Part shown: positions 3,001 through 8,881 of the stretch, piece after piece
Layout: each line of letters begins with the position of its first letter
How positions within the stretch are numbered: the first letter of the stretch is position 1
Source: a virus
Lineage: Duplodnaviria; Heunggongvirae; Uroviricota; Caudoviricetes
Strand: one strand, 5' to 3'
Virus record (IMG/VR): IMGVR_UViG_2529293214_000003
Location: 1 to 8,881 of that record
DNA length: 8,881 nt
Made by a program: the position numbers

Positions 3001-6000
3001 AGCGGAATTGAAAACGCCTCCGGCTCCAGCGTTGCCAGAACGTCGCTGGCAGTTGGCGTTAATCCACCAATCAGCAGGCCACCGATAACGCTCGCTTCGA
3101 TATCCTGTCTCATGCAATCCCCCTGTCTGCAAACTTCCCTTCCCGGACTCCCGTTAACGAGTCTTCTCTCAGCAGGTAATCAAAATCTGCCGTCCAGCCC
3201 GTGTCGTTGTCTCCGAAGTAAAACGGCTTGGCCTGATGCACAAACGCCCTGACATACGCTCTGAAACCGTCCACGTTTGGCGTTTTCAGTTGCGGGATGA
3301 TTTTCTTCAGGCGGCGTTTGCGTTTCTCGTTGACCTCAACAGCATGTGGAAGTCTGTCACCGACTTCTGTGTTGTAGGCGTTCAGGAAGGATTCGTAGTC
3401 GATTCGTTCTGCCTTGCGACGTTCAGGTTTAACCTGCCCATCGCCTCCCCCATTGGGGGGTAGGGGGGTATTATTTATATTCTTGTTAATACCTTCTTGT
3501 TCATGATGTGCGGTTGTTTGTGCGGCTTCATGTGCGCTTTCATGTGCGGCATGTTCGCTGAAATCCGCGCCATTACTGGCTTCGTCATGTGCGGCATCAT
3601 GTGCGGTTGTTTGTGCGGCTTCATGTGCGGGTGAATCGTCCATTTTTTGAGCATATTCATGGTAATTTGTGATGGTAATCACACGACCTTTTTGCTTCTC
3701 TCCATCAATGGTGATCATCCCCTCTTTCACAAAAACCTGAAGCATCCGCTCAACCTGATCGCGGCTTGCTGGCTTGCCATGCCTGTCGCATAACTGAAGA
3801 CCTAAATCAGCTGCTGTCACAACCAGTTGACCGGGTTGCAGATGCCATTCATGACCTTTGAAATTCGCTTTGTATGGCTTTCTGGTGGCATTCAGGAGAA
3901 GGTTTTCCCACAGGGTGCGAAGATAAACATCTTTCGCCCATGACTGTTTCAGAATGCTCCGGTACAACGGAATGTAACCAGTTTTCTGGTTCTCCATCCT
4001 GTTGCTCCTGCGCTCGTGTGCGGCGCTGAAATCGTAGATTTTTGCTGTATTGCTCATAACTACCTGCCTTGACGAAAGACCTTAAGAACATCGTTAAACT
4101 GACTTACGGATATGTCTTCTTTGAGCAGCTTTTCCAGAAATGCGTTTGGAATGAACGTATATCCCTCCTCTTTTGGTAGAGACGGGAGCAACGCCCTCGC
4201 CTCAGCCTTCAGAAGCTCAGTTCTGGCAACTTTCACAAAAGAGATTTGAGTTCTTTCATCAATGGAACGAAGGAAGCGCAAACGCTTAGCTTCTTTGTGT
4301 GTATCAGGTGGATTAAAGCCTTTGTTTCGCATATAATTACCTCGCTGGATGTTGTTAAAATTCCATTTGTATTTGTTCAGAACGCTCGGTTGCCGCCGGG
4401 CGTTTTTTATTGGTGAGTCCATCAAGCGCATACTTAAAAGCCCTGCTAATCGGACTGATGTCTGATGCCATTCCGAAAGCACACAAGACCGAAGCAATAA
4501 ACCTCCAGTCTGTTCTGCTTATCTTCGATTCATGACAGCCAATCATCTTTGCCAGACCGCGCTGGGTAAGCGTTGACAGGTTGATGAGTAAATCTGTTTC
4601 TGCGCGATCAACGTCACGCTGTGATAGTTTGCTGTAACTTGTTTGTTCCATTTCTTACTATTTCCATAGGTAAATAATCACTAATACTCATCTTTCGATG
4701 AGTGATTAATTAGTTACCGCGTTGTCGGCGGTGCAGATTGATAAAGAGCGGTGTTACTTATGCTGCCTGATTCGGTTTTGGAAACAGGTGTGGTAAATCT
4801 GGGCGGATTTCGTAAGCCTTGATCTGCCCTCCAGTGGCGTTAACAATGGCGGTAACTTTCTCTGGAGAGACCAACCCGCCTTTCAGCCATTTATGTACTG
4901 CTGGCTGCGTTACACCACACTTGTCGGCAAGGCGCTTTTGGCTACCGACAATTTTCAAGGCTCGTTGAATTACTAAATTCATGAGCATACCTCTTGTGGA
5001 CATTACTTATAACCAAAGATAACTCAAGTTATAAAAAATAGCAATAACCTTTGTTATTTTACTTTGGATAACCGTAGTTATAGATTTGTGGGTATGAAAA
5101 CATTCGCAGAAAGACTAAATGCAGCCATGAGCTCAGCAGGGGTGTCACAATCACAGCTTGCTGACATGGTTGGAATATCTCAGCCAGCCATACAGAAGAT
5201 GTCATCCGGTAAAACAAACGGATCTCGCAAGATGGTTGAATTAGCCAATGCTTTAAAAGTACGCCCTGAATGGCTTAGCTCAGGTATTGGTGAAATGAGG
5301 GATGGTGCACATGAAGAGCCATCGAATGTGCGTGAGTCATCTTTAAAAGCGGTGGTATGGGAAGACATAAAAAGAAACGATGACGAGTTTGTCGCATTGC
5401 CTCTTCTTAATGTTTCTCTTTCCGCCGGGAGTGGTAGCTGTGAGTTAGAGGAATCATCTGAGTTCTCTTTGGTTTTCAGAAAGTACTATCTGAAAAAGAT
5501 GGGGGTATCTGAAAGCTCTGCCAAGCTGGTTAGGGTGATAGGCCAAAGCATGGAGCCAACCCTTCACGATGGTGATGTTGTTGGAGTCAACACGCAAGAC
5601 ACCACCATCAGAGATGGTAAAACCTACGCTATTTGTCAATCTGATTTACTAAGAGTAAAGACATTAATAGCCACACCTACATCCGTGATAATCAGATCAA
5701 TAAATCGCGAAGAGTACCCTGATGAAGTAATGGATAGAGATGAGTTTCATGAAACAGTAAGGATTATTGGCAGAGTATTCTGGTCATCACATAGCTGGTA
5801 ACCAGTGGCCTGAAGAAACGTTTGGGTGAGGAGGATAGATGGCGTTCACTGACCTTGAATATCAAGCGGTCAAAAAAGAAGTTCACCAATTCATTGAAAG
5901 CATAAGGCCGCCTGAACATATCCGCAATGAACTGGATATTGTTTATAGCATCAATGACCAAACGATAGATATCGGCGAACAGCGCCCCGTGTGGCAGGGC

Positions 6001-8881
6001 AACCCAGGTGAAACAAACATCCTGCCATCAGCAAGAATCAAGTACATACGTTCTCTGGATAGATGGAAAATCTATTGGATGCGGAAGGATATGAAATGGC
6101 ATCAGTACAGTACTGAACTTTCGCTGACTGATGCGCTTGAGCTTGTGCGTGCTGACCCGGATTGCTGCTTCTTCGGATGAGTGAAGAGACATTTGGGTGA
6201 TGGATGGTCGCAGAAGTGCGGCTTTTAATGTAATCGAAGAAAAGTAATCCTTGTAAAACTTGATTTGACTGTATTGTCACAAAGAAAGGAATCAACGATC
6301 GTTTCTTGGGTCTTGATTTGTTTTGACGATCAAATTAGTATTGCCTCATCAACTGTATGAGGCTTTTTTATGCAAACCAAAAGCTACACCATCAAAGCAT
6401 TTCAGGACTTCTTACAGATGCTTCCTGAGCTTGGTATCGTCAATGATGCTACAGCCCGCAATCTCCGTGACTCTTCCCTGCGCCTTCTTACTGTTCTTGG
6501 GTCGGATTTCACCGATGCCGATATCCGTGATTATAGCGTTGCCAACTTAGCAAGTTCGTACGCAGACTCAGCAGAAAGCAAACCCTCTGAATCATCTTTG
6601 CAGGCATACAAAAGCCGGATGCAAAGTGCTATTGATAAATTTATCTCCTACCAGAATGGTGAGATTAATGTGTCAGTTGGTGATGTAAATAAAAAAAAGG
6701 AGCGTAAAAAGATGGCACCTAAGAAGAAGGCGGTAGCTGACGTACAGGTTGGTGTAAAAACATTTGAACTGCCGATTCCATTGCGCGGAGATCTTATCGT
6801 CACCATTGGCAACCTGCCTCGCGACCTGACAAAAGATGAAGCCAAGCGTATCAGTCTGATTGTGGAATCTTTTGCGATGATTGATGGCGGAACAAAAGAA
6901 TAAAGCCCCGAGGGAACGGGGCTTTTTGGGTCGGAAATATATCCAGTATTTCCGAAGTGTATGGAGGATTACCTACCGCTACACCCTTGGCAACCGCAAG
7001 CCAAGGATAGCGGTTCTCCCAACAAACTACAACCTGTTCGGGTAAACAGGCTGTATACAAAAACAGGAGAAAAGCTATGGCTCACGATGTTAATCGCGAT
7101 GACTTCATCTACGAACACGACAAGCCGGTTTATGTGCGCAGTTACTGCCGCATACGTTTCGGTGAGCTCGAACATGTTCGTCAGCACTTCCGCTCTTATC
7201 CGAGCTGCTGAAAATAACTAAATCTCAAACCCGGCCACCGAGCCGGGTTTTCTTTGCCTTACGATCCCCCCACCTAAAAAACATAACCAATTGTATTTAT
7301 TGATGTAACTCGCTAAACCATGCAGTTATGATCCCTGCCCCATCACCTTCATCCTCAACATTTACAAAAATAAAATACCTTTGTTATCCATTATTTATAA
7401 CTTATTTACCATGAATTATAAATTAAGTTATTGACCACACCTATAACCTGGGTTATCTTTAAGCCATCAGCAGGACGCTGGTAGCCAAACGGAACAGATT
7501 GGCAGGCTCTTTAACTTCGATGTGGCGCTGACAAAGCGCAAACAGATACCAAACGAGATGGGTTTGGCGGTGATGTGAATTGCAGCAGCAACGACAGCAA
7601 CCAGAAGATCAGCATCTGGCGCATCACCACCAAAGCCATTTCACATGAGGAAAATATCATGACGGTAATCGTGTACGGGAAATCAACATTCGCAGGAAAT
7701 GCCAAAACTCGCCGTCATGAGCGGCGCAGAAAGCTGGCTATCGAGCGTGATTCCATCTGCAACATCATCGATTCGATCTTCGGCACAGACAGTGAGGAAG
7801 CTGTTCAGGAAGCCCCGAGAAAGCGTTTAAGCCTTTCTGAAAAAGCAATATCACTCGGAAGCCTTCGCTGCAAGAAGTCAAAGTCAGAAGAGGTCGAGCG
7901 TAAACAGAACCGTATTTACTACCGCAAGCCACGCAGTGAAATGGGTGTGACTTGTGTTGGTCGCCAGAAAATGAAATTAGGCAGCAAACCACTTATTTGA
8001 GAGGAATTAATATGTCATCAATCCGCTTAACTACGAGAATGAAAGAGGAAATCGCTCGTAACGCTTTAATTAAGTCCGGGGTGTTCACTGAACTTGAAGA
8101 AGTAACAAAGTTAAAGAACCAGCTTGCACTTGACGCCAGAGTTATTGCGTTTGGCGGTAAAAAGAAAACTGAGGAAGTGGATCAGTTATCATCCAAGTTG
8201 GTAGCTATAAGTGAAGAACTTGGAAAGATGGGATGTTCATTTTACTCATACGATGTTAGTTCTACTTCAATTTATCTGACTGTATCTGGCAGAAGGGTTG
8301 GATGGCATTCATATGGGAAAGACGGCAACGGCAAAGATATATTGCTCCCTACTCCGATCAAAGATAAATGCATGTTTGACGCAGAACACGAAATAACAAA
8401 AAGGTTTGATGAAATCTGCGCATTGCAACAAAAACTTGAAGCCAAGAAAAAGGATATCGAATCAAATGTATGGGCTGCTTTGAACTCAGTCACAACAGTT
8501 AAGCGACTTATTGAAGTTTGGCCTGAAAGCAAAGAATTGCTACCAAAAGAAGCAGATAAAGCAAGTACAGCACTTCCTGCTTTACGGGTAGAAGATTTGA
8601 ATAAGATGATTGGACTTCCTTCCGAGGCCGCATAGTCGGCCTTTATTTTTGGCATAAACAACAGAATAAATACTGCACTGTGTATTCATTCCAACGAGTG
8701 AATACACGGAGCAATGTCGCTCGTAACTAAACAGGAGCCGACTTGTTCTGATTATTGGAAATCTTCTTTGCCCTCCAGTGTGAGGGCCTTTTTATATGCA
8801 TACCAATAACGCTTCACTCGAGGCGTTTTTCGTTATGTATAAATAAGGAGCACACCATGCAATATGCCATTGCAGGGTGGC

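Follow-up and report, generated by a model that had tools for sequence, protein, structure and literature searches.

In phage lambda, the slot between the repressor gene cI and the left operators and promoter (OL/PL) holds rexA and rexB, which are expressed in lysogens from the repressor-maintenance promoter PRM. We analysed the corresponding slot in an 8,881-nucleotide (nt) stretch of a Caudoviricetes virus (IMG/VR record IMGVR_UViG_2529293214_000003, positions 1 to 8,881; "the window" means this whole stretch), in which the gene order agrees with the cI-rexA-rexB-OL/PL-N order of lambda. An initial annotation of the window had proposed a single, unrecognised exclusion or defence module in the rexAB position, at 5839-7256. 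The position was borne out, and the features named there, namely the cI stop at 5801, the open reading frames (ORFs) for proteins of 113, 177, and 44 amino acids (aa), the terminators, and OL/PL, were all found where they had been placed.

The likeness to rexAB is one of position (3' of cI, 5' of a terminator, and before OL/PL), with a relic of a lambda-type cI 3' end also present in the window. It does not extend to sequence, and the genes differ in size and number and include no membrane protein; all three proteins are hydrophilic. As had been anticipated, BLASTP against lambda RexA (279 aa) and RexB (144 aa) returned nothing at E ≤ 10 for the 113-aa and 177-aa proteins, and the 44-aa protein gave only a chance-level match (E = 9.4). 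RexAB-like transcription together with cI is documented only for an ortholog of the 113-aa gene.

The closest described systems are those of the Shiga toxin (Stx) phages 933W and Phi24B, whose PRM operon reads cI-L0084-L0083-stk-L0081-tM. The layout is the same here, followed likewise by OL/PL and N; homology extends over both arms of the slot, and the 113-aa protein, a member of Pfam family DUF3024, is 98% identical. The cargo differs. In 933W it consists of L0083, the Stk kinase, and L0081, reportedly co-transcribed from PRM, whereas in the window an insulated cassette encodes the 177-aa and 44-aa proteins and brings a promoter-like site of its own as well as internal terminators; the window cI also differs from that of 933W in immunity type. 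In 933W, stk lies further downstream and is under pRM control (Smith et al. 2012, PMC3430580), and Stk is an abortive-infection protein against phage HK97 (as cited in PMC3564112). BstA of Salmonella phage BTP1 is likewise encoded directly 3' of cI, is highly expressed in lysogens, and acts alone (PMC8585504); it shares the slot in Yersinia prophages that carry a homolog of the 177-aa protein. None of the three window proteins had a Pfam match to KilA-N or BstA_C, and no self-immunity element of the anti-BstA (aba) type came to light, although no search was aimed at one.

We read this locus as an accessory slot between cI and N that is filled by two independent units, a DUF3024 gene belonging to the PRM operon and an autonomous, moron-like cassette of the 177-aa and 44-aa genes, both of which would serve the lysogen. 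For this reading in full, we consider the chances to be about even.

A variable slot between cI and N

The features that delimit and fill the slot are:

5094-5801, plus strand: cI repressor gene (HTH_3 and Peptidase_S24 by Pfam; start as in RefSeq), first gene of the PRM operon
5839-6180, plus strand: gene for the 113-aa DUF3024 protein, starting 37 nt after the cI stop, with ribosome-binding site (RBS) GAGGAGG at 5828-5834
6206-6222, plus strand: conserved hairpin (-9.8 kcal/mol), left slot edge, where homology across cassettes ends
~6224-7226, plus strand: variable cassette (177-aa and 44-aa unit), boundaries by blastn
6370-6903, plus strand: gene for the 177-aa protein (domains at residues 1-97, 98-128, and 129-170)
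6902-6925, bidirectional: strong intrinsic terminator 3' of the 177-aa gene (9-bp G+C-rich stem and U run, -15.3 kcal/mol)
7077-7211, plus strand: gene for the 44-aa protein (phrog_21154, E = 1.9e-31), RBS AGGAG
7227-7250, plus strand: tM/tRM terminator (-15.4 kcal/mol), right slot edge and end of the PRM operon

The slot edges were located by blastn of 5701-7800 against 90 fetched loci. Homology broke sharply at 6214-6226 and resumed at 7220-7228. The conserved left arm begins at the cI 3' end, takes in DUF3024, and stops within hairpin 6206-6222, whose counterpart in Sakai-like phages is trailed by a T run. On the right, 7227-7250 aligns with "tM; putative terminator for pM transcript" in 933W and with "tRM" in Phi24B, so this last terminator, which had been counted as part of the cargo, is instead a conserved element shared with both phages.

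Between these edges the contents were highly variable, and no empty slot was found among the 90 loci. L0083 with Stk was present in ~30 loci, the 177-aa/44-aa pair in ~21, a 162-aa protein with a 206-aa protein (hydrophobic tail) in ~12, and a ParA-like protein in ~8; other loci held DUF6978 with DUF1828, nucleotidyltransferase-like pairs, a HigB-like pair, and others. Several of these alternatives matched defence models (Stk, PD-T4-6 and mad6; DUF6978/DUF1828, PDC-M24; the nucleotidyltransferase-like pair, PDC-M63), and BstA occupies the slot in Yersinia prophages. That the slot is a recognised place for cargo was therefore upheld, in line with the description of the cI-N region as a hotspot of mosaic diversity common to rexAB and bstA (Owen et al. 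2021, PMC8585504). The variability for which related prophages were to be surveyed was likewise found. Co-occurrence of the genes as one module was not, since DUF3024 accompanies many different cassettes and the cassette also occurs without DUF3024. The two edges (6206-6222 and 7227-7250) offer a simple rule by which more cargo can be collected from lambdoid prophages.

Two loci illustrate the range of contents. In E. coli STEC299 (L003, 3248-4505), the same cI and DUF3024 are followed by DUF6978 and DUF1828, which match PDC-M24 A and B. In Y. pseudotuberculosis (L097, 4899-6525), the slot stacks BstA (KilA-N and BstA_C), a 43-aa ORF, and then a 174-aa homolog of the 177-aa protein.

The DUF3024 gene downstream of cI

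No domain had at first been recognised in the 113-aa protein. It matched Pfam DUF3024 (PF11225) over residues 4-113 of 113 (108.7 bits against a gathering cut-off of 24.9; E = 2.4e-31) and phrog_3467 (E = 4.5e-67). It also matched the PADLOC candidate PDC-S43 over its full length (residues 1-113 on profile positions 1-115; E = 7.2e-42), which agrees with the earlier suggestion that it might be a defence-type protein; NCBIfam gave no match. The protein is 98% identical to 933W L0084 and Phi24B vb_24B_13c and 88% identical to gp24 of Salmonella phage SE1; with the gene annotated in these three phages and the cI-N region published as a mosaic hotspot, "unrecognised" had overstated the case.

The gene lies on the strand of cI, upstream of tM, with no terminator-like site in the 37-nt gap behind cI, and its strong RBS was seen as described; it fits as the second gene of the PRM operon. 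Its ortholog has already been detected in lysogens. Phi24B protein "P2" was spotted on two-dimensional gels of lysogen cultures (Riley et al. 2012, PMC3342100), and the accession numbers given for P2 in Table 3 of that paper are those of 933W L0084 and SE1 gp24. Lysogen-restricted expression was reported there only for P2 and P3, both encoded downstream of cI, and the profile of P2 by reverse transcription-quantitative PCR tracked that of cI at a level ~10 times higher. Similarly, vb_24B_13c was cited as lysogen-expressed by Veses-Garcia et al. 2015 (PMC4651098). Lysogen expression, which had been proposed for the whole module, is thus documented only for the ortholog of the 113-aa gene. Few Stx-phage proteins have been shown to be produced in stable lysogens, and DUF3024 is one of them.

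We examined the genomic context of DUF3024 in 80 viral contigs and reference phages encoding a relative. The same-strand gene directly 5' of DUF3024 encoded an S24 repressor in ~85 loci (all but a few), with a gap of 9-371 nt. These repressors fell into at least four clusters with <40% mutual identity (933W type, 41 loci; the cluster of the window cI, 19; a type with a lambda-like C terminus, 17; P22/SE1 type, 4), and the linkage was kept even for DUF3024 relatives that were just 38% identical. In loci with a lambda-like cI C terminus, DUF3024 begins 9 nt after the cI stop. On this evidence, the DUF3024 gene is a conserved anchor or companion of cI and not variable cargo, and it remains fixed there while the downstream cargo is swapped, which makes it a focused target for studies of exclusion or induction effects. 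At ≥95% nucleotide identity, the gene was present in 227 of 5,426 complete E. coli genomes.

Two copies of an 18-nt direct repeat, with the consensus GAAGA(A/G)AC(G/A)TTTGGGTGA, flank the gene:

5803-5829, plus strand: relic of a lambda-type cI 3' end, reading QWPEETFG*, 25 of 27 nt equal to the lambda cI 3' end
6183-6200, plus strand: repeat copy 2 (GAAGAGACATTTGGGTGA, reading EETFG*), just 3' of the DUF3024 stop

Copy 1 (5812-5829) lies inside the relic, upstream of the DUF3024 gene, and both copies correspond to the final codons (EETFG*) of a lambda-type cI. This arrangement suggests that the DUF3024 gene entered, or is exchanged, via recombination at the cI 3' end.

The close association with cI bears on a different role, in which DUF3024 would not be a defence protein and would instead tune the prophage switch, for example through RecA-stimulated cI cleavage or the SOS response, in the manner of Hex (phage 434), PsiB, or DinI. 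The tie to S24 repressors of at least four immunity types, down to 38% identity, points this way, as do the 9-nt spacing in lambda-like cI contexts, the two flanking copies of the cI 3' end, and the presence of dinI close to DUF3024 in an Erwinia remnant. Hex itself is a precedent, as it is PRM-transcribed, adjoins cI, and blocks RecA-mediated autocleavage (PMC3564112). However, identical DUF3024 proteins occur beside unrelated cI proteins, so that DUF3024 does not co-vary with immunity specificity, and many members are solitary in chromosomes with no repressor near. Moreover, DUF3024 is a frameshifted, unannotated pseudogene with two 1-nt deletions in VT2-Sakai/Sp5-type Stx2 phages (L005, 2509-2850), and these phages keep a functional switch without it. 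We regard a switch-tuning role as unlikely.

The DUF3024 family comprises 2,908 clusters at 90% identity, all single-domain and ~113-116 aa long, with invariant motifs at the N terminus (MAF.D.E) and C terminus (D...CF[FW]G). An AlphaFold2 model of the 113-aa protein had a mean predicted local distance difference test (pLDDT) score of 90.9 and an alpha-beta5-alpha fold; the protein is small and soluble and bears no enzyme-like signature. The fold resembled those of the uncharacterised Bacillus protein 1ylx, actin-capping protein, frataxin/CyaY, and a frataxin-like subunit of Thermus complex I; further resemblances were to PsiB, AcrIIA11, toxin immunity proteins, and a type III secretion chaperone. 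A Foldseek search of predicted viral structures returned nothing at E ≤ 0.001. As modelled, the likeness is one of fold to small protein-binding modules and not one of homology, and on that account we suggest, with low confidence, that DUF3024 may act by binding another protein and not as an enzyme.

The 177-aa protein family

The 177-aa protein matched phrog_2602 (E = 5.2e-79), and a profile search of 1.84 billion representatives recovered 1,090 relatives (clusters at 50% identity, E ≤ 0.001), which among the best 150 were mostly 156-203 aa long. Its model contained a confident four-helix domain at residues 1-97 that resembles the core-binding (SAM-like) domain of integrases, so that here, too, a recognisable fold was found where none had been reported. 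Distant members of the family gave weak, sub-threshold matches to Phage_int_SAM, and a profile search aligned the protein weakly to residues 76-167 of lambda Int. Searching solved structures by sequence, with single proteins or alignment profiles as queries, gave chance-level matches only. Residues 98-128 form a disordered, lysine-rich basic linker (isoelectric point [pI] 10), followed by a C-terminal motif at residues 129-170.

These parts have diverged at very different rates. Across 34 relatives, mean identity to the window protein was 88% at residues 129-170, 25% in the linker, and 44% in the N-terminal domain, where distant members fell to 21-31%. Between the window and Salmonella, the C-terminal 50 codons of the gene showed 9 synonymous and 0 non-synonymous changes. 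The family is thus, as judged by these comparisons, a large and nameless one in which a variable domain is joined to a near-invariant motif, a pattern that is frequent in host-parasite conflict genes.

Compared with tyrosine recombinases, the 177-aa protein shares the core-binding-like domain and lacks the remainder: no Pfam Phage_integrase catalytic domain and no arm-binding domain were found, the sequence stops at residue 177, the N-terminal domain is acidic, and the invariant C-terminal motif is specific to the family.

Mobility and expression signals of the cassette

The cassette was also found in other elements. In Salmonella, it follows dinI at the end of P2-like prophages near pepN; in Raoultella, it is part of a P4-like satellite that also has a D5_N primase and AlpA. 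The 177-aa gene also adjoins P2 ogr/D in Enterobacter, occupies the cI-N slot of Yersinia prophages (once behind BstA), and lies near gin in Yersinia phage YP3. In these other homes the 177-aa gene was mostly paired with the 44-aa gene, and none had DUF3024 alongside, which indicates that DUF3024 and the cassette are independent units. The single module first proposed accordingly resolves into a conserved cI companion and, from its distribution, a mobile, self-contained cassette. Near-identical copies of the latter occurred in only 6 of the 5,426 complete E. coli genomes.

One idea raised by the position after dinI in Salmonella, that the 177-aa protein is a Gifsy-type antirepressor, was rejected, as Gifsy-type antirepressors reach only about half the length of the 146-aa Tum protein (PMC3121763) and no similarity was seen.

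The cassette carries its own predicted expression signals:

6313-6341, plus strand: candidate promoter TTGATT-17 nt-TAGTAT of the 177-aa gene (8 of 12 consensus positions)
6343-6369, plus strand: hairpin 6343-6363 (-10.1 kcal/mol, z = -3.6) with RBS GAGG in its 3' arm, then T6 and ATG

Hairpins 6206-6222 and 6343-6369 intervene before the 177-aa gene, which therefore falls outside a simple PRM operon. The layout of promoter and hairpin recurs in Salmonella (after dinI; L100) and in Y. pseudotuberculosis (after cI; L098), and the stem of the RBS hairpin is kept in both with different terminal pairs. Because a start ~7 nt past the -10 element would fall within the 5' arm, the hairpin is expected to form only in transcripts arriving from upstream; we infer that it terminates these transcripts or masks the RBS in them and leaves the cassette's own transcript free. 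YP3, Salmonella, and Raoultella also keep the terminator at 6902-6925. Upstream of the 177-aa gene, a LexA box was sought and rejected, the only candidate being a one-mismatch CTGT-N8-ACAG at 6269-6284, with a count not above chance.

Work by Juhala and colleagues in 2000 is said to have described lambdoid morons as promoter-gene-terminator insertions. Like morons, the cassette is self-contained, with its own promoter-like site and terminator, lies between conserved segments, and occurs in several unrelated elements. It differs in that its promoter is only predicted (8 of 12 positions, kept in three contexts); its terminator is strong.

The fold and these signals raise the alternative that the 177-aa protein serves the element itself, as a regulator that binds DNA or as an accessory factor in recombination, and is not a defence effector. 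It may, for instance, be a transcription factor, an anti-silencer, a decoy on recombinase core sites, or a protein that docks on recombinase tetramers. The tyrosine-recombinase core-binding fold and the lysine-rich linker of pI 10 favour such a role, copies lie near the invertase gene gin (YP3 and Salmonella) and inside integrative satellites, and both in the window and in Yersinia the promoter is spanned by an inverted repeat, TTGAT-N11-ATCAA, through which the protein could regulate its own gene. A search for a repeated operator motif for the protein inside the cassette found only chance-level short repeats. Against this role, the protein has no catalytic domain, no recombinase is a consistent neighbour, and the cassette is found in cargo and not in regulatory positions; an acidic, hypervariable N-terminal domain with an invariant C-terminal motif also fits arms-race recognition better than a site-specific DNA binder. 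On balance, a regulatory role is doubtful.

The 44-aa gene and its leader

The 44-aa gene keeps the 177-aa gene company even in the divergent VT2-Sakai version of the cassette, the proteins of which are 57% and 40% identical to those of the window. In Raoultella, the 44-aa protein is 95% identical while its 177-aa partner is only 45% identical, and the 44-aa gene shows 14 synonymous and 4 non-synonymous codon changes. An excess of changes at third codon positions, indicative of purifying selection, was seen in all three genes of the slot; together with the PHROG matches, this marks the three ORFs as more than chance and the 44-aa ORF as, by all appearances, a real gene. In tblastn of the phage collection (E ≤ 0.001), the 44-aa protein was found in SH2026Stx1-type records only, and it had no match in plasmids and no PADLOC or NCBIfam match. 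An 86-aa ORF (6961-7221) that overlaps the gene was judged spurious because its frame is stopped in Salmonella and Raoultella, and minus-strand ORFs were rejected as not conserved.

The same selection signal argues against the view that the genes are neutral passengers, retained only because they lie in recombination arms. DUF3024 is indeed repeat-flanked, forms the conserved left arm of the slot, and has decayed in one lineage. Nevertheless, the excess of third-position changes extends to all three genes, DUF3024 spans 2,908 clusters with uniform length and invariant residues, the 177-aa family spans 1,090 clusters at 50% identity, and DUF3024 protein has been seen in lysogens. We find mere passengers hardly credible.

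Upstream of the 44-aa gene is a structured leader:

6932-6954, plus strand: leader hairpin (z = -5.7)
6975-7014, plus strand: leader hairpin (z = -5.9)
7029-7054, plus strand: leader hairpin (z = -2.8)
7051-7066, plus strand: LexA-box-like CTGT-N8-ACAG (exact match), abutting the RBS of the 44-aa gene

YP3 retains only the first hairpin. A search of 5800-7460 against Rfam at a permissive E-value returned no family and no match to the leader, and a tRNA search found none. The LexA-box-like site recurs unchanged in Salmonella L100; Raoultella L094 retains the CTG-N10-CAG core in a leader that is otherwise visibly far more diverged than the coding region. As matches to CTGT-N8-ACAG are not above chance in the window, the significance of this box is uncertain. 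Separately, hairpin 6975-7014 shares 13 of 14 nt with 6801-6814 and 13 of 17 nt with 6839-6855, in the region coding for the C-terminal motif of the 177-aa protein, and this similarity is either a relic of partial duplication or chance.

A cassette of two genes with its own signals that moves among prophages and satellites, with one partner very small and highly conserved, is also what a toxin-antitoxin or other addiction pair that stabilises its carrier might look like, and a HigB-like toxin-antitoxin pair occupies the same slot of another phage. The arrangement is, however, atypical for a bicistronic type II system, with a strong terminator and a 150-nt structured leader between the genes. 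The 44-aa protein is hydrophilic (grand average of hydropathy, -0.90) and so no membrane type I toxin, the 177-aa gene occurs without it in Yersinia and Enterobacter, and the pair had no match to a toxin or antitoxin family. An addiction function is very improbable.

Possible roles in the lysogen

The two-unit reading can be put as a mechanism. DUF3024, as the conserved second gene of the PRM operon, would be co-transcribed with cI in lysogens and translated from its strong RBS. The cassette would be a moron swapped into the hypervariable site between hairpin 6206-6222 and tM. A terminator-like hairpin would mask the 177-aa RBS in read-through RNA, leaving expression to the cassette's own predicted promoter only, and the 177-aa protein would combine a fast-evolving recognition domain with a near-invariant C-terminal motif that contacts the 44-aa protein or a host protein. 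We infer that the lysogen gains from both units, most likely because they exclude other phages or abort their infections, a role that is plausible from location only.

Three lines of evidence lead to this anti-phage interpretation: other occupants of the slot include validated defence proteins (Stk and BstA), the other homes of the cassette are cargo sites of P2-like prophages and a P4-like satellite, and a rapidly evolving domain coupled to an invariant motif is in keeping with a conflict gene. Cargo hotspots of P2-like phages and P4-like satellites are reported to be a reservoir of anti-phage systems (PMC9122126). These lines amount to association and not to proof.

Other observations weigh against the two-unit reading or its anti-phage interpretation. 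PDC-S43 is a computational candidate only, predicted by genomic association, and its status may owe to neighbours such as Stk; a literature search found no experiment on PDC-S43 and no paper that names DUF3024 or tests its function, and a search for "L0084" returned unrelated papers only. Outside Enterobacterales, DUF3024 is solitary and lies in varied chromosomal contexts (for example, beside NUDIX and putAbiC, downstream of a KAP NTPase and an integrase or of a KilA-N gene, or between housekeeping genes), only some of them defence-like; look-ups of distant members found no conserved partner gene outside prophages. The VT2-Sakai-type pseudogene further indicates that DUF3024 is dispensable. 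As for the cassette, the 177-aa protein had no Pfam, NCBIfam, or PADLOC family match, its C-terminal motif was poorly modelled (pLDDT 41-67), and the acidity of its N-terminal domain (pI 4.9) is atypical for a DNA-binding core-binding domain and weakens a simple DNA-binding role. The candidate promoter falls under the scan cut-off of 9, with 8 of 12 consensus positions. Lastly, the 44-aa gene is missing from the Yersinia and Enterobacter versions, and where present it lies beyond the strong terminator 6902-6925.

A bolder proposal is that the 177-aa and 44-aa genes form a new, widespread two-gene system directed against phages or other mobile elements, and that DUF3024 is, separately, a true single-gene immunity factor. 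The hypervariable domain would then sense invader DNA or protein, with the C-terminal motif and the 44-aa protein responding, and DUF3024 would be retained beside cI in many lambdoid immunity types. We advance this combination tentatively and think it somewhat unlikely.

The novelty of the locus is modest: it is cargo in a known cI-N hotspot, with one gene already annotated and lysogen-expressed, and it makes a reasonable, if unsurprising, candidate for a defence screen. The virulence of enterohaemorrhagic E. coli is driven by Stx prophages, whose gene expression during lysogeny influences which other phages can infect or recombine with them.

Flanking genes and source of the window

The remaining features around the slot are:

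4758-5003, minus strand: cro
7374-7459, plus strand: OL operators and PL (TTGACC-17 nt-TATCTT at 7431-7459)
7659-8000, plus strand: N gene
8012-8635, plus strand: gene of the Nmad5 family ("nucleotide modification associated domain 5," E = 4e-71), directly 3' of N

The longest cI ORF opens at 5064, compared with the RefSeq start at 5094. The Nmad5 gene occupies the position of L0079 in 933W.

Searched alone, 5000-7700 matched Escherichia phage SH2026Stx1 (NC_049919/MG986485), phage LC727904, and four complete E. coli chromosomes at 100% identity. No record in either searched collection covered ≥80% of the whole window, the best matches being O121 Stx2a prophages (77% covered, 98% identity). 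We classify the window as a 933W-family Stx prophage, and as a mosaic one because no record reaches that coverage.

Two further elements lie towards its ends. At 720-3113 on the minus strand, a DnaB-like replicative helicase (797 aa) is split by an intein with a LAGLIDADG homing endonuclease; two separate Pfam DnaB_C stretches enclose matches to LAGLIDADG_3 and Hom_end, and the SH2026Stx1 helicase is ~459 aa and uninterrupted. The window breaks off inside a lambda cIII thermoregulator element (Rfam RF01804; 47.7 bits, E = 5.5e-09), of which only the start is present, at 8844-8881.

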